A stretch of DNA of 64,000 bases. Origin: Fistulifera solaris (lineage: Eukaryota). The position numbers were made by a program, and so were the translations under genes. Position 1 is the stretch's first letter. Every line of letters starts with the position of its first letter. Positions 41,915 through 58,159 of the stretch are shown here, piece after piece. The stretch is taken from positions 930,001 through 994,000 of the forward strand of contig AP026127.1 in assembly GCA_030295235.1 (NCBI GenBank), written 5' to 3'. The notes beneath the pieces are model-generated. The model saw only the letters and a program-made list of their open reading frames with translations. It did not search any database and had not been told where the DNA came from.

Positions 41915-42339
41915 TGGAAGATTATCAACTAAATGTTGCTGTGGAGAAGTAGGTTAACAACATAGTAGTGAATGAATGATCTAGCAATTACGGAGTAGCC
42001 AAACAATAGTGACTAGTGATTAACTCATCTGAGACCCGTGTTTTTCGTCCGGTGTGTGCGATGACATCACCGGCGGCACGCGCGATCTTTCATAAGATCT
42101 TTTCTTTATTTTCGTCCTCTCATTTTCGTTTGGAACCTATTTTACGTTTCTACTCTTGCCATTTGGCCTGATCTGAATGTATGGCGCGGGTCTGCAACGT
42201 TCATAAGGTTTCTTCAAGTTGAGGTCTCGATCTGAGAAAAGTCCTGACCGAACGACAGAAACAAGAAACAATCTACATTGTCGCGACAGAAAAGATCTCG
42301 TCGGCACATTTCTGTTCATTCGATCATTCGACGATCATT

Positions 42340-43245
42340 ATGGAACGTCTCCGCTTCACTCTCGACTTCACCCCCAACGCCAATCACAGCGGTGTGTTTG
42401 CTGCGATCCATCACGGATGGTACAAGGAAGCTGGCATTGATCTGGAGCTTCAGCATCGTGACTTTCAGCACAGTGGTATCGCCAAGCTGGAGTTGGGGAT
42501 TGCCGATGTGGCGTTCACGGCAATGCTCGTTCTAGGAAGCTATCAAAAGCAGGATTCGTTTCCGATCAAAGCCATTGCTACGGCGATGCAGAACGACTTG
42601 AGCACGATTGCCGTGCTCGCCAAGAGCGGCATTGAGCGTCCCGCTCATCTCGACGGCCGATCGTACGCATCCTGTCAAGCGGGCTTCAAGAACCCCACGG
42701 TTGCCGCTCTGATCCGTAGTGACGGCGGACAAGGTGATTTGACTTTCACTTATCCCGAGAAGATTAGTAGTTGGGAGGCGCTGGCCGAGAATGAAGCCGA
42801 TTCGGTCTGGATTTATCGCAACTGGCAAGGCGTGCAGGCCGAGTTGGCGGGTGTGGATCTGCGTCACTTCACCTTGGGCGATTACGGTGCACCCTATTGC
42901 TACTCTCTCGTCATGGTCGCCAACACGGACTACATTGCTAAGAAAGCGTCGACGTTGCGTGCTTTCTTGGCGGCAACCGCCAAAGGCTATGCTTGGGCCG
43001 CGGAAAATCCGGACAAGATGGCGGAAATCCTTTACGATTGGGTCGCGGATGCGGATAAGCATTTGACGTTTCTCAAGGCAGCGCAAGCTGCCACCAGTCC
43101 CCACTACATCTCTTCCAAGACTGGATCCTGGGGACACATGGAAGTCGAGAAAGTGTATGCTTATTTGAAGTGGCGCAAGGAACAAGGTTTGGAAACGACT
43201 ACCGTGGAGGCCGACGCGCTCGTCACCAATGAACTCCTTGGATAG
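42340..43245 (+). CDS. NMT1/THI5-like protein, copy 2
   Basis: 301 aa, colinear with copy 1 (LDFTPNANH, SGIERPAHLDG, WIYRNWQG). Confidence 0.9.
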   Translation: MERLRFTLDFTPNANHSGVFAAIHHGWYKEAGIDLELQHRDFQHSGIAKLELGIADVAFTAMLVLGSYQKQDSFPIKAIATAMQNDLSTIAVLAKSGIERPAHLDGRSYASCQAGFKNPTVAALIRSDGGQGDLTFTYPEKISSWEALAENEADSVWIYRNWQGVQAELAGVDLRHFTLGDYGAPYCYSLVMVANTDYIAKKASTLRAFLAATAKGYAWAAENPDKMAEILYDWVADADKHLTFLKAAQAATSPHYISSKTGSWGHMEVEKVYAYLKWRKEQGLETTTVEADALVTNELLG

Positions 43246-43427: not shown

Positions 43428-43960
43428 TGGAAGATTATCACTTTAGTGTTGCTGTGGAGAAGTAGATTAACAACATAGTAGTGAATAGTTTATTAATTGA
43501 AAAGAAACAGCCTCCCTCTAGCTTGTCCTAAAGCGTTCGGAGGCAGCGTGAATGAATGATGAGACGAGTCGTATGTCGTACGTCAGTTGTCCGCGCGGAT
43601 CGGATCTTTTTTGGATCTTTCGTCACATTTCGCACTCGTGCATTAGTTCTGCAAAATACCTTCCAATAAATCTCTGTCCTGCTCAGTCCTCATTATTTTT
43701 GTCAACCCCTTTCACCTTTCACGTCATTCAATTTGAATCTTAATACACTATTCAATCATAACAGATGAAGCGTTGAACTGGCTTAACACCATCCACCCAT
43801 TAGGCCGAAATCCAAAATGGCATCCGATCTTCAAAGATACGCATGAGAAAGTCTTGACGCGGGTCTGACGGAAATCAATGGTGGAGATTATGCACGACGG
43901 CTTTTCACTTCATCCTCGATGTGGTGACGGTGTTGAAGACCCACTTTACAAACAGCCAAC

Positions 43961-44869
43961 ATGGAACGCATTCGTCTTGCTCTAGACTGGAAACCCAACG
44001 TCAATCACAGCGGAATTCTCGCTGCGATTCACCATGGATGGTACAAAGAAGCCGGCATTGAGCTCGAACTCATCGATCGCGAGTTGACGCAAAGTGCCCC
44101 GCAAAAAGTCGAGGCGGGCCTCGCAGATGTCGGACTGACCTGCATTGTCACGTTGGCGAGCTACCGCGAGGAAAAGGATTCGCAGCCTCTCAAAGCCATC
44201 GCGTCGCTCATGCAAGAAGATTTGAGTTCCATGGCGGTGCTCGAAAGCAGTGGCATTGAGCGTCCGGCGCAGCTCGATGGGAAGCGCTTTGCGGCTTGCT
44301 CGGTGGGGGGACGGAACCCGACTATCACCTGTCTCATTCAAAACGACGGAGGAAAGGGTGACATCACCTACATTCAATCCGATCGTGTCAATCTGTATGA
44401 GACGGTGGCAGAGAACAAAGCCGATGCTATTTGGCTCTTTAAGAACTGGCAGGGCGCTCAAGCGGAAGCAGCCGGAATCAAGTTGCGTCACTTTACGTTG
44501 GGTGACTATGGAGTGCCTTATTGCTATCCCATTACCATGTTTACCAGCCCCACGTTCCTCGCCGAACATTCCAAGACTTTGCGCACATTTCTAGCGACAA
44601 CCGCCAAGGGTTATGCCTGGGCGGTTGCCAATCCGGAGAAGATGGTGGACATTCTCCTGGAGCAGGTGCGTGACGAACACAAAGATAAGAAATTCTTGGA
44701 AATTGCCTTTGCTGCGACTCGTCCGTACTTTATTTCGTCCAAGACGGGTTCTTGGGGGCACATGGAGCCCGAGAAAGTCAACGCTTACTTGAAGTGGCGT
44801 GCGGAGCAGGGGCTATCCAACGGACCCCTTGCAGTTGACGACTTTGTCACCAACGATCTTCTTGGATAG
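43961..44869 (+). CDS. NMT1/THI5-like protein, copy 3
   Basis: 302 aa (LALDWKPNVNH, SGIERPAQLDGK, WLFKNWQG). Confidence 0.9.
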   Translation: MERIRLALDWKPNVNHSGILAAIHHGWYKEAGIELELIDRELTQSAPQKVEAGLADVGLTCIVTLASYREEKDSQPLKAIASLMQEDLSSMAVLESSGIERPAQLDGKRFAACSVGGRNPTITCLIQNDGGKGDITYIQSDRVNLYETVAENKADAIWLFKNWQGAQAEAAGIKLRHFTLGDYGVPYCYPITMFTSPTFLAEHSKTLRTFLATTAKGYAWAVANPEKMVDILLEQVRDEHKDKKFLEIAFAATRPYFISSKTGSWGHMEPEKVNAYLKWRAEQGLSNGPLAVDDFVTNDLLG

Positions 44870-45370: not shown

Positions 45371-47756
45371 TTAATCGACAGTTACTGCCTTGGCAAGATT
45401 TCGTGGAGTATCCGGGTTGATTCCTCTGAAAGAGAAAGTGTAAGTCCAACTACTTCTTCCACACTTGCACCGTAACCACACGAAACGTACCGTAACATGG
45501 CCAACTCGTATGAAATCAACTGTAGTGGAAGGACAGCACCCAACGCGGTCAATGGACCATTGTTGGGGATGATGATTGGATCGTCGTCCAAGTCACGGGC
45601 CAGTTCCGCCTTGTCGGTAATAATTATGACTTGCGCTCCGCGTGCTTTCACTTCTTCTGCCGCGGTACGCATGTGATGCGCGTGCTGATCGTCTAGAATC
45701 AACATGATAATGGGCGTGGCACCAAACTTCCCGTTGTTGTCATCTTCAATTAACGCAAATGGACCGTGCTTCAATGCGCCACCACTGTAGCCTTCAGCAT
45801 GCAAGTAGCACATCTCTTTAATCTTCAAAGCACCTTCCATAGCCACCGGTTCTCCATATCCTTTGCCCAAAACGAAGCAATGCTCCTTCGTATTAAGTTT
45901 TTGAGCCACCTTTTCACATTGTTGACGCGTTTTCAACGCCATACCGAACGTAATGGGCAATCGCATGAGTGCTTCCTTCAATTTGATGGCCTCAATACTG
46001 GGTGGATGACCTTCAATTTTGTCGCGCGTTTGACGGAACCACAGAGCAATCAATGCCAAGACGGTGACTTGTGTTGTGAACGCCTTGGTACTGGCCACGG
46101 CGTTCTCGCGTCCCGCATTGCAGTAGACACCCGCCTTGGTCGTTCGTGCGATCAAACTACCGACGGCATTGACGACACTAAGTACATTGATGCCACGATC
46201 CATGGCCGTATTGACAACACGAGCGACATCTTTCGTTTCACCACTCTGTGACACCACAATGAGTCCGGTGGATTCCGGATTCGACGGACACGGAAAATCC
46301 TTGGGTTCGGTTTCGGCCGCATCCAACGAATATACACTATCAAAACTACCCAATTGCTTCATGAGTCGTTCACCGTACTTGGATGCATTGAGACTGGTCC
46401 CACAGGCCGACAAGACCATGTGTTTGATTTGACTAAATCGATCAAAGTTCCCGTCCAATCCACCGAGGTTGATGTTGTCCGCCCCCAATCGTCCACCAAA
46501 TCCCATGGCCCGGGCAATGGCTTCTGGCTGTTCGTAACACTCCCGGAGTGTCCAGTGCGGATACGGCGCCGGACTGAGTTTGACATCTTGATCCGGTGCC
46601 TTTTGTTTGCGTTTCAAATCCAGTGACCGTCCGTCGGCATGCAACACACCAATTTCTCCATCCTTCATGGAAATGAAATTCTTGGTGTACCGATTGAATG
46701 CCGACGTTTCACTGGCAATGAAACAACGATCATCACCGATGCCAATCACGAGGGGTGAACCATTGCAAGCGACGACCAGTTCATCGGGCGAATCGACACA
46801 CATGATCCCCAACCCCCACGTGCCGTCACACTTTTGCAAGGCCTGTTCAGTGGCATCACGGAGTGTCATGCCGGGATTGTTCGCGTAGACGTGTCCAATC
46901 AATTTGGCAATGACTTCGGTGTCCGTTTGTCCTTCAAATTGGTGTCCGAGTGCTTGCAATTCTCGTCGTAATTCGTTGGAGTTGTTGAGCGTGCCGTTGT
47001 GGACTAACGCAATCTTCCCGGACGAATCGGTATGCGGATGGGCATTTTCGTCCGTTTTTCCACCATGTGTCGCCCAACGCGTATGCGCAATGCCCACCGA
47101 GTGTCCAACCGATGCTTGTGAATGATCACGGACCATTTCAATGGAATCGGCTTTTTCTCCGACACTGGCAAATTTGGTAATGGCCTACAAGAGGGACAAG
47201 AGAGTATGAGAAGAGGGGCGAACATTGAGAAAAGGGCTAGTGCACATGAAAGTAGCTTACCAATTTTCCACCTTGATTGTCCATGGTCGCAATTCCAGCA
47301 CTGTCATAACCGCGATTCTTCAAAATGGTCAATCCATCGACCAAAAAAGTCACTGTCGAAATGATATAAGAAAGAAAGACGAAAAGATATTCAACGTGAG
47401 AGTCCAGCTGAGCAAAAAAAGAAATAAAAAAACGAGAAACACCCGACTCTTTCTCAGTAACGGTTGCTCGCTTCATCACTCGATTCATTCGTTCGTTCGT
47501 TCGTTCGACGTACCGTGCTTCGACGCCTTTCAACGCCACAATTCCAGCAATTCCACAGCATTCGGCTTTTTTGTTGTTGTTCTTGTTGTTGTTGCCATAC
47601 CGCCATGGCCGTAACCGCCGCGGCCGCCATCATCCAAGAGTGATCGTTCTTGTTGTTGTTCGTCGAAGCCAAGGTCGAGAAAGCCGCCAACGTCGTCGGA
47701 CGTCTCGTCGTCATCGACTGGGCGAGCAGTTTTCGCGATGTCAACCAGAATGTCAT
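45371..47756 (-). CDS. GFAT: Glutamine:fructose-6-phosphate amidotransferase with an N-terminal targeting-like extension; 3 introns
   Basis: [65 protein letters not shown] and terminal [15 protein letters not shown]. Confidence 0.95.
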
Positions 47757-48592: not shown

Positions 48593-48993
48593 GATCCTGC
48601 TACCTAACCGTTGTTAGCAATCAACACTATTAGCAATGCCAGTTGGCGAATCAAGAAGATGGGAAACGGCTTTTAAATCAACTACTTCTGTAATTACTGT
48701 CGGCTTTAAAATGTTGTGTCTCGTAAAGCACGAAGTTCATCTTCCACAGAAATTCTGGGGGTGTGGTGATTTCACTTGTCCAGAAAATCTGGAAATCGAG
48801 CGTGGACGTTTTGTGCTTTGCGGTTGCTGGAGAAAAAGATCGCAAAAGCCGCAACGACGACAATGAAGATCAATTAATCAATTAATTGCGTTTTATCAAC
48901 CTGGTTTATTCGTTCCTTTTTAAATCTCCTCTTGCACTTAATCAAATTCATTCTATCATTGGAGAGCCCGTGTTTGCTGGTGAATGAAATAAT

Positions 48994-51530
48994 ATGAATC
49001 ATAATATAACCAACTCGTTCTTGTCGCAAAGCATCGCTTCACTGACGATTCAAGAGGCACACTGGCCTGAAGCATGTCCCCCAGAAGAAGGGTTTCTTTC
49101 GGTTATTACTGGAAACACGCATTGTAAATTTGCTTATCATGATGGAAGTGATTATCGTCCTCGATCCTTTTGGAGGTACATTGTGTAGCGAGAAAAAGTG
49201 GGTAGCGAAATGAAATATGCATCTCACTCATCAACATTTTTCTCTTTGTTCTTTCTTTCTCATTAGAATTCCCGTCTCATCGTCGTCATCACACAACAAT
49301 CACACAAACAACCGAGACAGTTTTCTGGAATCGATTCCCCATCAAAGCATTGCCGCGCAAGCCTTGTGGAAATCACCAACGACTCCGCTGACCCGTGCCG
49401 CCATCTATCATTATCGCGTCACCGCGAAACGAGTGCCGGCCGTCACAATCTATCTCATTTCGACCAATTCCGTCCACGAAACCATTTTGGGACAATGGTT
49501 GCAAGGATTGCCCGTCCGATGCATACGATTGCGTCCGAAGGATGTCGTGTCCATGCCCTTGCCGTATCCGACCATGGGGATGGATCGATTTGTGGCGGCG
49601 CAAGCCGTTTCCACGTTTCCGGCTCTCATTGTCGACGGAGGAACGGCCTTGACGACTACCGTCATCAATGAAACCGGAAACATTGTCGGTGGAACAATTG
49701 CACCGGGATTGTATGCACAATGTCGGGCTTTGTATATGGGGAATTTGCCACTCTTGACTCCGGACGAATTACAACAGTTTATGGAACGAACCGAGCCGTT
49801 GCCGCTGTGGGCAACTAATACCAAAGATGCCATGTGGAATGGAGTGGTGCGGAGTACGGCGTTGTTGGTGCGAGCGGTGGTGCGAGATTTTTGCGGCAGC
49901 ATTCATTGCCGGCCAAGAATGGTCGAACGACCGCACATGTGATTGTGACAGGGTCGGATGGACCGTTCCTAATGAAATTGTTGAATTCCGAGTCATGTCA
50001 CCGACTGTTGGCGCAAATGCCCCGCGATGATGACTTTGTCTGCGATGACAGCATGATGAAATACAATCCACATATACTGCATGAGGGGATCACGCAGATT
50101 CTTTTGCAGCATCGAGTGAGTACTGATGTCGATGCGCCGCACTCGGAATGGACTGGATTGCGGGTAGCACGGAATGTTGGGCGTGGATATGTGGCTCGGG
50201 TCGAACGCACGGACAACTTGGGACAAGCTTTGTTTCATGTCCTCTATGATCATGGTTATGGCGAAATCTTGGGGGTGCTGGCATTCTACGGTATGTGTCT
50301 ATTGCTTGTTTTGTCGCAATGTATCAGTGTTTCTGACAAAAGGGCACTTCGGTAATTAGATGCTTTAATTCGATACAGTCTCAACGGAGAGAGTATCACG
50401 ACAGTCGACATGACAGAGAGTTCCGCTGTCGAACGAAAACAAAAGAATCAGAACGAGCCGCGGCTTTGCTAGTGGAAAGGTGTGCGGCCGTCAAAGAACA
50501 CAAGGAACGTACTATTGGTTCCCCTCCGGTGTTTAGTCCAGAAAAAGCTGTGCACGGAAATGCGTTATTGCCAGAGTACCTTATACCACACGGGCCACCG
50601 CCAGTATTCAGTCCAGGACGAGCCAATGCGCCACCGACTCGCAAACGCGGTCGACCTCGAGAGAGCTCTCTGTCCCCGCAGCCGCTTCCGAATGGGGCGA
50701 TTGCAACAGGAATGAGCGGAAACGGCTTGTCACCGCAACCAACTAGTATCCCACGTAAACGCGGGCGACCTCGAAAGAACCATCTGTCCCCGACTTCGAT
50801 TCCGAATGGGGCGATTGCTGGAACAAACGGGAATGTTTCGGTATCGCAACTGAGTAACACGCCACGCAAACGCGGTCGACCTCGAAAGAATCCTCTGGCG
50901 CTGCAGCCAGTTTTGAATTCGAATGGAGCGTCTGTACCAGGGACGAATGGGAACGTTTTGTTATCGCAACCGAGTAGTACTCCGCGCAAACGCGGTCGAC
51001 CTCGAAAGAGTTCTTTGTCCCTGCGACCGATGTCTAATCAGAATGCCGTAGCAGGAACGATCGAGGGCGGTGCCTCGCAACCGAATAGTATACCGCGGAA
51101 ACGAGGTCGACCGCGCAAAGATTCGATGCCTACAAATAAGCCAATGCCGAGTCCAAATCGAGCTTCAACAATGGAACCAAATGACGATGCAATGGCGTCG
51201 CAGCAGCAGCAACAGCAGCCGAGTACGCCACGCAAAGTTGGTCGTCGTCAAAAAGATCCTTTGAGTTCAAACAAACAAGATCGAAGGCGAAAAGAGTTTC
51301 GAAACACCCTACCTGACGGTGTCCTACCGACGGATTATGTGAAACGCCACGTAGCTAAATTCTTTGGGGATGAAAACACGCTGTTTTACGGAAAAGTCGA
51401 GTCGTACGATCCGGAGAGTCAATATTGGAAAATCGTTTACGACGACGGAGATGAAGAAGAAATGGAGTTCTACGAACTAGTTGTGCAATTAAAATGCTAC
51501 GAAGAGAATAATGAGCAGAACCATGCTTGA
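48994..51530 (+). CDS. Type III pantothenate kinase (CoaX-like) fused to Tudor-like, 5 AT-hooks and a second Tudor-like domain (2 introns, 2 homopolymer frameshifts)
   Basis: Kinase motifs SVITGNTHCK, GMDRF, LIVDGGTALT, GGTIAPGL, NTKDAM.NG and VIVTGSDG. Then LFHVLYDHG, five RKRGRPR, and VAKFFG..FYGKVESYD..WKIVYDDGDEEEM. Confidence 0.75.
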
Positions 51531-52144
51531 GATGTTGATAGTCTATTCTTTACGACAACAGCTAACCTAGATCGATAGAAGACGAACCTGGGAACTAAAT
51601 CGGAGTTCTCATCTTATTTGACTCTGTTTTAGTTAAATGAGTAGAAATTTTAGTTTGATTTTCACTGAAAGCCTTAGCTCTCTCGCTCGAGTGACCACGT
51701 ATTTTGTCGTCAGGCGCGGAGAGAGTTAGTACCATTTAATTCCCAACGGAAAAGGATCGTGTTAAATAGTCTAAGTCTTACATATCGCTTATAGAGTTCC
51801 TTTCCTGACACTGACTCAACAAGTACCACAGCACATTACTTCATGATTCCGTTCGACCAAAACTCCCCCTTCCGCACAACGTGTTTTCCCACGATCGCTC
51901 CCTACCAGTACGAACGATCCTCGCTGTCACAAAGAAAGAGGTGCAGGAGTGTTTGAGGTAAAAGAGCTATTTTGCTGCAAAACACTTTTATTCCTTTCGA
52001 TTCGAATGTTGAACTCTTCAAGCCAAAAAGAAAGGACAAGGTTGTATAGTGAACATCTCACAAATAGATAGGGTACTTTTTTGCGCACTTGAATGACAAG
52101 CGGAGAGTGAGAGGTGTTATTAACTTCCTTCATCCGCCGACCCC

Positions 52145-55948: not shown

Positions 55949-56329
55949 AATGAATGAATGAGCCCTCGATAATCCTCATCCCTCGCACTCTCGGGGCCGT
56001 TGGCACGCTTTGAATGTCGTCTTTTCATCTTTCACGTTTTGTATCTAAATAATGCATTAGGAGATTTAGGTAATGCTTTCTCAACGGACTTAAAGAAGTC
56101 TCTTTACACTCGATTATAAAGTAGCGGACCACGTATCAAAAAGACGACGTGGAAAGAGCGCAAGAGAAAAAAGATCCACGACCCGGCGACTTCATTCGGA
56201 ACGTTGCGAACACGCGAGAAAAGATCGCTTCATTGTCACGTGTCGCTTATATGCAGCAAAGCATTCGACGTGCTCGAGCAATCGTTCAGCCTATTTCTTG
56301 ATATTATTCAATTGAAATCCCTTAGCACC

Positions 56330-58159
56330 ATGTCAGACGATAGAACGCTTGTCGAATATTTCGCGGAAGTTACCGTCCCCAAGATGGGCGATCGCATTTT
56401 CATGACGCAGCCCATGGGAGGAGACAAGGTCAATACATACACTTTCAAGCAAGTTCTCGAAGCAGCCAAAAAGGTCGCCGGGTACATTGAAGGTTTGCAG
56501 CTGCCTCCAAAGTCGCAAATTGCCATTATGAGCAAGAATTGTGCTTGGTGGATCATTGCTGATTTGGGTATCTGGATGAGCGGGCACGTCTCGGTGCCGG
56601 TGTACCCCACATTGACCGCGGAAACGACCAAATTCATTTTGGAGCACTCGGAGTCGAAGCTGTTGTTTGTAGGAAAGCTCGATGAACACCCGTGGAAGGA
56701 AATGAAGAACGGTATTCCCGACGGACTCCCCACAATCTCGTTCCCGCTCTGCCCCGAGGGTCAATGTGCGGAGAAGACTTGGAAAGAAGCTTTCTCGAAG
56801 GCGACACCGATCGCTACTCCGGTCAAGCGCTCCTTGGATGAAATGGCTACCATTATCTATACTTCGGGTAAGCATTCCGTTAAATACGATTGTTCATGAA
56901 AGTATGCTTAAGAACTCAACTCATTTTTCTTTTTCACAGGATCGACGGGAAATCCCAAGGGGGTCATGACGAGCTTCAAAGCCATGCGCGATACGACCGA
57001 GGGACTTGTAAAGGTCCTCAAAGTAACCAGCAATGATCGTTATTTGTCGTACTTGCCCGTGGCTCACGGTATGGAACGTTGGATTGGAGAAGTAAGTGTT
57101 TGTCTCGTTGCTGTCGTTCAAAGATAGGATCATAAACTCAAGCTTTGTCGTGACTTGCAGTGCATTCCTTTGTATTCGGGAGAACACCTCTACTTTGCCG
57201 AATCGCTCAACACGTTTGTTGCGGATCTGAACCGGTGTCGTCCTACTTTGTTCCTTTCGGTCCCCCGTCTCTGGACGAAATTCCAAGCCGGTGTATTCAC
57301 TAAAATGCCGGAGAAGAAGCTCAGCACGCTGTTGAGCATTCCTTTGATCAGCTTTCTCGTCAAGAAGAAAATCCTCAAGGGACTCGGTCTTGACTGCGTT
57401 CGCTACGCTGGTTCTGGATCGGCCCCAATCCCTGCTGAGCTCATTGCTTGGTATCGTCGCCTTGGTCTTGAATTGTTGGAAGGATACGGTATGACGGAAA
57501 ACTTCAACTACTCGCACGTCAGTCGCCCCGGAAAGTCACGCGTTGGTTATGTGGGTAACACATACGATGATGTCGAGCATCGTATTGCCGAGGACGGAGA
57601 GATTCAGGTCAAGACCCCTGGCAAGATGATGGGATACTTCAAAAACGAAGAAGCCACCAAGGAGGCTATTACGGATGATGGATGGGTCCGCACGGGCGAC
57701 AAAGGAGAAATTGACGCACAAGGGCGTCTGAAAATCACGGGCCGCACCAAAGACATTTTCAAAACAAGCAAAGGAAAATACGTCGTACCTGCTCCCATTG
57801 AGAATCAGTTTGTCGCGAACCATTTGGTTGATTTGGCGTGTGTCTGTGGACGATCGGCCCCGCAACCGCACGCCATTCTCCAATTGTCGGAAGGACCCAA
57901 GGCCAAAGCCGCAAATGCAGCCGACCGTGAAGCTATGGGCAAGGAGCTGGAAGAGTATTTCACAAAGACGATCAATCCGTCGTTGGATGCCCACGAGCAT
58001 TTGGACTTTATTGTGATTGTCAAGGATGATTGGCTTCCCGAAAACGGCTTTTTGACTCCTACTCAGAAGATCAAGAGAAGCTTCATTGAAGATGCCTATG
58101 GCTCGAAAGTGGATGCGTGGTATGCGGAAAAGAAGAAAGTCATCTGGTATGGATGGTAG
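56330..58159 (+). CDS. Long-chain acyl-CoA synthetase (AMP-binding), 2 introns
   Basis: IIYTSG|STGNPKG, YLSYLP.AH, EGYGMTE, DGWVRTGD, TGRTKD..KGKYV.P and LTPTQKIKR. Confidence 0.93.

Follow-up and report, generated by a model that had tools for sequence, protein, structure and literature searches.

A cyanobacterial-type pantothenate kinase fused to Tudor domains and an AT-hook array in the diatom Fistulifera solaris

Results

A locus at positions 48994..51530 on the forward strand of a 64,000-nucleotide stretch of the Fistulifera solaris genome (contig AP026127.1, positions 930,001 to 994,000; hereafter the window) was found to read as a protein of 792 amino acids (aa), in three exons and after the addition of one base to each of two homopolymer runs. 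In this protein a type III pantothenate kinase (PanK) domain is followed by a Tudor domain (Tudor 1), a helix, five AT-hooks of sequence RKRGRPR and a second Tudor domain (Tudor 2). The corrected and spliced reading comprises 2379 nt, corresponding to 792 codons and a stop, with no internal stops, while 26 in-frame stops were counted when the window was spliced uncorrected. The sequence points to one intact diatom gene. A preliminary description of the locus had proposed a single protein with the order kinase-Tudor-hooks-Tudor, and this is borne out both by the open corrected reading and by P0002, an uninterrupted 776-aa protein of Fistulifera solaris in which PF03309, PF02178 and PF21743 were all identified.

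The corrected reading is 80.8% identical to P0002 (616/762 aligned columns). The two share their exon junctions, their domain order with five [RK]GRP hooks and the same TGNT and TGSD motif variants; P0002 differs in having an uninterrupted frame, in being 16 residues shorter and in a sixth hook that is still of the GRP type. Its public name, "type III pantothenate kinase", stems from automatic annotation (NCBI/UniRef). F. solaris is allodiploid, and P0002 may therefore be the homeologue of the gene described here.

Exon 1 (48994..49175, forward strand, as are all features of the gene) opens with an ATG that is directly preceded by an in-frame TGA, and encodes the first kinase strands together with a PHOSPHATE-1-like motif, VITGNT, of which GNT corresponds to residues 40-42 (nt 49111-49119). 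Residues 2-63 of P0002 were aligned by tblastn to 48991-49173 with 88.7% identity. Intron 1 (49176..49266, 91 nt in the window) is bordered by GT at 49176-49177 and AG at 49265-49266, and its junction has the same position in P0002. Exon 2 (49267..50290), covered by P0002 tblastn pieces in frames 2 and 1, encodes the type III PanK core, with the motifs GMDR (49577-49588), DGGTA (from 49634), GGTIAPG and TGSDG (from 49948), together with strands one to three of Tudor 1. Intron 2 (50291..50359, 69 nt; GT at 50291-50292, AG at 50358-50359) lies inside Tudor 1; P0002 reads LAFYDALIRYSLNGE across this junction, and the intron is read through by the protein models P0003 and P0001. Exon 3 (50360..51530), matched by residues 439-776 of P0002 (tblastn), supplies the last strand and the helix of Tudor 1, a long helix, the AT-hook array and Tudor 2; it belongs to an open frame at 50337-51530 and its stop TGA occupies 51528-51530. 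The stop-to-stop translations hold VITGNT, GMDR, VDGGTA, GGTIAPG, VTGSDG and KIVYDDGDEEEM. Both introns had been placed at these positions in the preliminary description, and their GT and AG borders are present in the sequence and leave the corrected reading open. Since Tudor 1 spans exons 2 and 3, the sole splice joining the kinase half (with the start of Tudor 1) to the reader half (the rest of Tudor 1, then the hooks and Tudor 2) sits within one domain.

Both apparent frameshifts are homopolymer under-calls of the window assembly, and the gene is intact. The first falls at a T-run (49888..49892), where the window has 5 T against 6 T in public reads. The second falls at an A-run (50441..50444), where the 4 A of the window stand against 5 A in a contig from the public run X1, in which 96% of the sampled words of the locus were present. 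This contig (1989 nt, depth 18.5) was aligned to 49038-51023 without a single substitution and differs only by three added bases, each within a homopolymer: an A after 49192, which falls inside intron 1, a T after 49887 and an A after 50440. The extra T behind 49887 was also found in a contig from a second run, X2 (depth 4.1). The contigs of the three runs compared, X1 and X2 among them, retain the introns and therefore represent DNA rather than cDNA; among the public runs listed for 48900-51600 there was no RNA run. At the protein level, the public 379-aa model P0001, which is 100% identical to the locus, crosses the T-run in the 6-T frame as VVRDFLRQHSLPAKNG, and P0002 is unbroken across the A-run, where it reads AVERKQKEAERAAALLVERC. 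When P0002 was compared with the window by tblastn, four collinear pieces were obtained in frames 1, 2, 1 and 3, the frame changing at about 49888-49906 and 50436-50445. The single-base corrections proposed earlier for the T- and A-runs were therefore legitimate, given the extra T in X1 and X2 and the extra A in X1. A genuine stop at 50470, named in the preliminary description as an outcome that would argue for two separate genes, is contradicted by the X1 contig with its extra A; the stop is false and is caused by the A-run under-call.

The alternative that the locus comprises two neighbouring genes, or a decaying pseudogene copy, with real frameshifts, a real stop at 50470 and an artefactual fusion, can appeal to the two frame changes and the in-frame stops of the window as given, and to P0001, which ends inside intron 2. 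We nevertheless consider it very improbable. The extra T occurs in contigs of two runs that are otherwise identical to the window, one of which also has the extra A, and the third one-base difference is intronic, which is the signature of homopolymer under-calling. P0002 is uninterrupted, transcriptome-derived relatives bear both domains (see below), and no Met occurs ahead of residue 126 (ATGMSGNG) in the frame that encodes the second half.

Three one-base deficits were thus counted within the 1986 bases (49038-51023) covered by one X1 contig, and apparent frameshifts elsewhere in the window may be the same under-calling artefact. Because the assembly under-calls homopolymers, its other "frameshifted" genes are not to be taken for pseudogenes.

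The kinase domain comprises the N-terminal 350 residues. The window at 49268-49939 matched Pan_kinase PF03309 with E=4.9e-17 and 62.9 bits (cut-off 24.7) and the "baf/type III PanK" model TIGR00671 with 73.8 bits (cut-off 58.2); P0002 scored 81.3 bits against the latter over residues 39-318. An AlphaFold2 (AF2) model was built from an alignment of 136 sequences for P0002, which is about 81% identical to the window protein, and not for the window protein itself. Its mean predicted local distance difference test score (pLDDT) was 74.2, with confident regions at 20-465 and 710-776, disorder at 470-700 and values mostly above 85 over residues 20-355. In a Foldseek search with this model, solved PanK-III structures matched first (5b8h, E=2.2e-14; template modelling (TM) score by target 0.71-0.74), and the 23 best-ranked rows were all PanK-III or Baf entries (TM by target 0.65-0.76), including 2f9t, 2h3g, 3bf3 and the Mycobacterium tuberculosis CoaX structures 9b78 and 9cku. 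The P0002 model thus displays a two-lobed ASKHA fold like that of solved PanK-III enzymes. The earlier assignment to a bacterial-type (type III) kinase stands, given the PF03309 and TIGR00671 scores above cut-off and the PanK-III fold of the P0002 model.

In the corrected reading GMDR occupies residues 165-168 and DGGTA residues 184-188, and they align with G107-A-D109-R110 and with D129/T132 of 2h3g, respectively. A secondary source assigns G-A-D-R of 2H3G to substrate binding, the Asp to the K+ site and the Thr to PHOSPHATE 2 (PMC11315101). The motifs conserved in the family (GxDR, DGGT, GGxIxPG and the first Gly of TGG) correspond to these elements of 2H3G. Among the non-cyanobacterial rows of alignment A1 with a residue in the respective column, GxDR is kept (D in 116/121, R in 117/121), as are the D of DGGT (117/121), the first G of TGG (116/117) and GGxIxPG. 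The Asp of GxDR is the general base of PanK-III enzymes. PHOSPHATE 1 is DxGNT, with Asp6 in 2H3G numbering, according to the same secondary source (PMC11315101), and solved PanK-III enzymes read D-V/C-G-N at this site. Relatives in which PHOSPHATE 1 is aligned mostly read S(I/V)xCGNSxLHWALH (up to 53/125 non-cyanobacterial A1 rows), and the cyanobacterial CoaX subtype reads (I/V)GN(S/T)RLHWAWF; in neither group is Asp ever the commonest residue in these columns.

The best-scoring NCBIfam model, for the window piece and for P0002 alike, was NF009871, whose equivalog cut-off was passed by 5/8 short bacterial relatives tested. Of 600 candidate loci from an alignment-based genome scan, 596 proved to be relatives, and the top 80 among them came nearly all from cyanobacterial genomes, with a few metagenome-assembled genomes labelled otherwise. 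Each of five cyanobacterial genomes yielded one PF03309 match over cut-off. Type I PanK was over cut-off in none of the five (best 32 bits vs 235); PF03630 (type II PanK) gave no match in them either, a result that is uninformative, the control having matched 0/14 genomes. This Asp-less subtype is very probably a working PanK, because it is the sole PanK detected in 5/5 cyanobacterial genomes, and VITGNT alone therefore hardly argues for a pseudokinase.

A quick maximum likelihood tree of 67 near-full-length domains was computed under LG+G4 with Shimodaira-Hasegawa-like approximate likelihood ratio test (SH-aLRT) support only; its group labels were assigned from length, motifs and a few named members, and its outgroup is small. 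The 45 long eukaryote-type rows formed one clade (SH-aLRT 99), sister to a cyanobacterial-type clade (99), and the two together (98) stood apart from 10 other bacterial CoaX, one row labelled "other bacteria" being placed among the cyanobacterial rows. Judged from profiles and tree, the kinase is of the cyanobacterial CoaX subtype and was presumably acquired by an ancestor of these algae from a cyanobacterial lineage. A cyanobacterium-derived PanK in stramenopiles has already been published: Fan et al. (2020) attribute the stramenopile pantothenate kinase to prokaryote-to-eukaryote gene transfer from an anciently split cyanobacterial donor (PMC7190310), and the affinity seen in our tree agrees with theirs.

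Tudor 2 (51345..51527), which contains FYGKVESYDPESQYWKIVYDDGDEEEM and a C-terminal helix, is of the PTM/DIR17 type: the frame 50337-51527 matched PTM_DIR17_Tudor PF21743 with E=2.7e-12 and 46.7 bits (cut-off 27.2). An AF2 model of the domain (33 sequences) reached a pLDDT of 90.1 and showed an SH3-like barrel of five elements, made up of four strands and a helix. Its best Foldseek match was 7de9 (probability 1.00, TM 0.68 by target, 25% identity), and most of the rows listed were Tudor domains, with SMN, SPF30, TDRD3, PHF1 and 53BP1 after 7de9. This structure is the Tudor domain of Arabidopsis RDM15 with a peptide of histone H3 monomethylated at lysine 4 (H3K4me1), in which the methyl group is held by W616, Y623 and Y641, the ammonium protons by D643 and D645, and H3R2 by E647 (PMC8184781). 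By sequence offset, these cage and acid residues would fall on F22, F29/Y30, Y47, D49, D51 and E53 of window:51300-51527. Of the latter, F22, D49 and D51 do not vary among the 33 sequences of alignment A4, and Y47 and E53 hardly vary.

A Kelch propeller identity was also considered for Tudor 2, as PDB sequence matches to designed and natural propellers reached E=2.5e-15. It was ruled out: each single repeat matched with E of 10 or worse, the score being the sum of six chance matches, VESYDPESQYW mimics the motif, and both Pfam and fold say Tudor. The stretch 51396-51434 (VESYDPESQYWKI) within Tudor 2 is such a Kelch-motif mimic and a trap for sequence-only searches.

Tudor 1 (50152..50400, split by intron 2) is degenerate. 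The window's own piece gave no Pfam match, and BLASTP between the two Tudor domains of the window returned E=0.11 only. When profiles of the two Tudor domains were made from the family and compared by hhalign, they were related with a probability of 99.3% (E=2.4e-20). Several relatives (e.g. P0011, P0032, P0053 and P0065) have a PF21743 match at the Tudor 1 position, and in the AF2 model of P0002 residues 370-421 form four strands and a helix, with block means of pLDDT mostly between 79 and 97. With the hhalign result and the PF21743 match on Tudor 2, both Tudor-like domains noticed in the preliminary description proved to be real. The family motif YDDGDxE is replaced in Tudor 1 by YDHGYGE (YDHGCSE in P0002); H and Y occupy both Asp positions and V the first cage position. 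The Asp pair that binds the ligand thus appears to have been lost from Tudor 1 in Fistulifera and its nearest relatives.

The five RKRGRPR hooks were located by a regular-expression scan at 50640-50660, 50754-50774, 50865-50885, 50985-51005 and 51096-51116, with spacings of 38, 37, 40 and 37 aa. They are genuine, as had been proposed: the motifs are exact and AT_hook PF02178 matched the frame 50337-51527 over cut-off, in 4 stretches (E=5.3e-8, 32.3 bits, cut-off 17.4). Tandem Repeats Finder reported the array as a tandem repeat at 50829-51045 with a period of 120 nt and 77% matches, and it is predicted to be disordered, the equivalent part of P0002 having a pLDDT below 50. A sixth, degenerate hook (51231..51254, PRKVGRRQK) lies 45 aa beyond the fifth; P0002 has HKVGRPRK at this place. 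Between hooks 5 and 6, a GCA/CAG trinucleotide run of 6.7 copies (51200-51219) encodes QQQQQQ.

Hooks of the [RK]GRP type were found in 11/152 proteins: five in P0002, two in P0145, one in each of five proteins, and one to three in each of the short proteins P0005, P0015, P0024 and P0025, whose identity to P0002 or to Tudor 2 of the window is 53-71%. At least one such hook is present in only 2/54 of the proteins with both PanK and Tudor domains. Repeated AT-hooks are thus restricted to the closest relatives, and the array is a recent addition in Fistulifera and these relatives, outside the family core. The tether of Fistulifera would accordingly have been rebuilt from "two Tudors" to "one Tudor plus five AT-hooks".

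A phmmer search with P0002 against 1.84 billion representatives returned 1616 matches at E<=1e-3, 191 of them at E<=1e-10. The Pfam scan covered 77 (P0004-P0080) of the 150 relatives listed, the other 72 listed falling outside it. PF03309 and PF21743 occurred together in 54 of the 77, 15 had PanK only (several from short contigs) and 8 Tudor only. Both domains are also present in P0013 (Entomoneis paludosa) and P0018, two proteins from MMETSP transcriptomes. In the nearest Atlas cluster, all 66 members are from Eukaryota (100%) and 33% have PF21743; Bacillariophyta is the commonest phylum among the only 6 members for which a phylum is recorded. The consensus of 25 full-length members has two Tudors, both with YDDGDxE. 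Proteins that join PanK to a Tudor of the PTM/DIR17 type thus make up a broad and conserved family, some members of which are named as diatom proteins.

Among proteins with this type of Tudor domain, P0023 (1860 aa) has 8 PF21743-type stretches with helicase-associated (HA) domains, P0007 (1186 aa) has 6 stretches with a PanK remnant and P0078 (846 aa) has 4, which suggests a lineage-specific expansion of the PTM/DIR17-type reader.

Three further sets of open frames were noted around the locus. Downstream, at 56120-58159 (+), lies an acyl-CoA-synthetase-like AMP-binding enzyme (CoA, coenzyme A) split over two frames, 56120-56899 covering PF00501 positions 7-172 and 57128-58159 covering positions 226-384 and the C-terminal domain; the split is due either to an intron or to another homopolymer error, and the presence of a CoA-using enzyme 4.6 kb downstream of the kinase fusion is probably a coincidence. 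Upstream, two NMT1/THI5-like open frames stand in tandem at 42223-43245 and 43937-44869 (+); each matches PF09084, with E of about 1e-47 to 1e-48, and the family is linked to thiamine pyrimidine synthesis. The reverse strand has an open frame of 600 aa at 45385-47184, which contains glutamine amidotransferase and SIS domains and resembles GlmS (glucosamine-6-phosphate synthase).

Discussion

From the gene structure, domains, family, cyanobacterial affinity and motif conservation described above, we infer the localisation, ligands, catalysis and biological purpose of the fusion protein as follows. The protein would be nuclear and tethered by Tudor 2, which would dock on an H3K4me1-like methyl-lysine mark, and by the five AT-hooks, which would hold AT-rich minor grooves. 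The CoaX domain would still bind pantothenate and ATP and would probably still phosphorylate pantothenate, so that the kinase would act at, or report to, particular chromatin. We regard this proposal as evenly balanced between being right and wrong. A plastid presequence would find no space in the protein, as the conserved WPxxxP...GNS segment begins no later than residue 25. Type III PanKs as a class show no sensitivity to CoA, and a canonical type II PanK is to be expected in diatoms as well.

Several observations weigh against a chromatin-bound active kinase. Neither the window piece (76.2 bits) nor P0002 (90.4 bits) reaches the 251-bit equivalog cut-off of NF009871. PHOSPHATE 1 departs from the DxGNT pattern: in V-I-T-G-N-T the Asn and Thr are kept and Ile replaces Asp. 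The window protein also departs from its own family consensus, with TGNTHCKF for CGNSxLHW and TGSD for TGGD, and catalysis may have been lost in this lineage. For Tudor 2, the Foldseek E-value of 0.019 is weak for a small domain, and the RDM15 residues were mapped onto it by sequence offset, not by structural superposition. Nuclear acetyl-CoA-producing enzymes couple metabolism to histone acetylation, and the preliminary description had suggested that the kinase might support histone acetylation. This may be so, but it is not a full account: the product of PanK, 4'-phosphopantothenate, is four steps from CoA, and a local supply of CoA would therefore require that other enzymes be present there too.

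The main rival to an active, chromatin-bound kinase is a sensor in which catalysis is lost, or nearly so, and which would serve as a pantothenate/ATP switch tuning the engagement of chromatin or of partners by the Tudor domain and AT-hooks, as a eukaryotic counterpart of the CoaX pseudokinase of M. tuberculosis. We hold this to be possible though rather unlikely. M. tuberculosis CoaX binds pantothenate and keeps the fold without ATP hydrolysis, regulates the stability of PanB and owes its lost activity to two changes of Gly to R and H (PMC11626117). The window protein itself lacks the PHOSPHATE 1 Asp, and in its ADENOSINE motif, T-G-S-D-G in place of T-G-G, the second Gly is Ser, as it is in P0002 and in seven further rows (P0003, P0020, P0028, P0034, P0046, P0061 and P0113), where 102/117 long rows have Gly; fusion to reader and DNA-binding modules is, moreover, typical of regulators. 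The missing Asp, taken in the preliminary description as a sign of a possible pseudokinase, turns out to be weak evidence, as the Asp-less motif is shared by the relatives and by cyanobacterial CoaX, the sole PanK detected in all five genomes. The Gly of xGNT that is Arg in M. tuberculosis (mapped by residue numbering, not by alignment) is kept here, and the GxDR Asp is conserved in 116/121 rows.

An enzyme that is real and acts off chromatin, with Tudors that bind methylated non-histone proteins or mediate assembly and a hook array that serves as a nuclear or nucleolar import signal or as a nucleic-acid tether unrelated to histone marks, appears improbable to us. Tudor folds do also read methyl-arginine on non-histone proteins, those of SMN, SPF30 and TDRD3 were among the next Foldseek matches, and the Tudor type has expanded with unrelated domains, as in P0023 with its eight stretches and HA domains. 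The best structural match, however, is the H3K4me1 reader RDM15, the cage and Asp positions are the most conserved columns, and AT-hooks are classical minor-groove DNA binders.

A wider reading, which we hold to be possible though rather unlikely, is that a family known so far from diatoms has long kept a cyanobacterium-derived PanK of a CoA-insensitive type in physical linkage with H3K4me1-type readers, so that vitamin B5/ATP status, or the first committed step of CoA synthesis, would be read directly at chromatin. Such a link from metabolite to chromatin would, if true, be undescribed for the CoA pathway in any eukaryote, and an enzyme of this pathway built into one protein with histone readers and DNA-binding modules would couple metabolism to histone acetylation in a new manner, one accessible to genetics, in a group of ecologically dominant, oil-producing algae. 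The locus also illustrates clearly how a bacterial enzyme gained by horizontal transfer has been domesticated through its fusion to chromatin modules specific to eukaryotes. Full-text literature searches found no paper describing a PanK-Tudor-AT-hook fusion, and one reconstruction of chromatin evolution contains no occurrence of pantothenate. The separate parts are known, and the fused architecture is present in public databases under an automatic name; the novelty lies in their combination, in how widely it occurs among diatoms and in the rebuilding with AT-hooks. The fusion is apparently an undescribed way of placing a CoA-pathway enzyme, or a sensor derived from one, on chromatin.

Among known systems, cyanobacterial CoaX (NF009871/PRK13331) is the closest to the kinase half. 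It has the PanK-III fold and, as here, GN(S/T)..HW without the PHOSPHATE 1 Asp; it keeps GxDR, DGGT, GGxIxPG and TGGD, and it forms the sister clade in our tree. Unlike the window protein, it is a stand-alone protein of 250-296 aa without Tudor or AT-hook. Bacterial Baf and BirA-CoaX fusions likewise tie a CoaX-family domain to gene regulation or to a DNA-binding partner, with a helix-turn-helix repressor in the place of histone readers and AT-hooks, and the Campylobacter jejuni "Baf family transcriptional activator" 2nrh was among the structural matches of P0002. The stramenopile PanK of Fan et al. is the same kind of gene with the same inferred donor, and Tudor, AT-hook and chromatin have no occurrences in the main text of that paper (PMC7190310). 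M. tuberculosis CoaX is a precedent for a CoaX fold that serves regulation rather than, or besides, catalysis; it acts via the depupylase Dop on PanB and without reader domains, and its inactivating changes, R8 and H229, appear to differ from the substitutions in the window protein (PMC11626117). On the reader side, the RDM15/PDS5C Tudor is the best structural match of Tudor 2, their cages and Asp-x-Asp-x-Glu coinciding by offset, with Trp as the first cage residue of RDM15 against Phe in Tudor 2, and with Tudor 1 here lacking both Asp. A parallel in principle is offered by the MSH6-Tudor fusions of plants and some algae, in which a Tudor of like type, a disordered linker and an enzyme are combined as in the window protein; these fusions, found in photosynthetic lineages including stramenopiles, are thought to be recruited to H3K4me1 chromatin (bioRxiv 10.1101/2024.10.15.618488). 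MSH6 is a DNA-repair protein with chromatin as its substrate, whereas the enzyme of the fusion described here is a small-molecule kinase.

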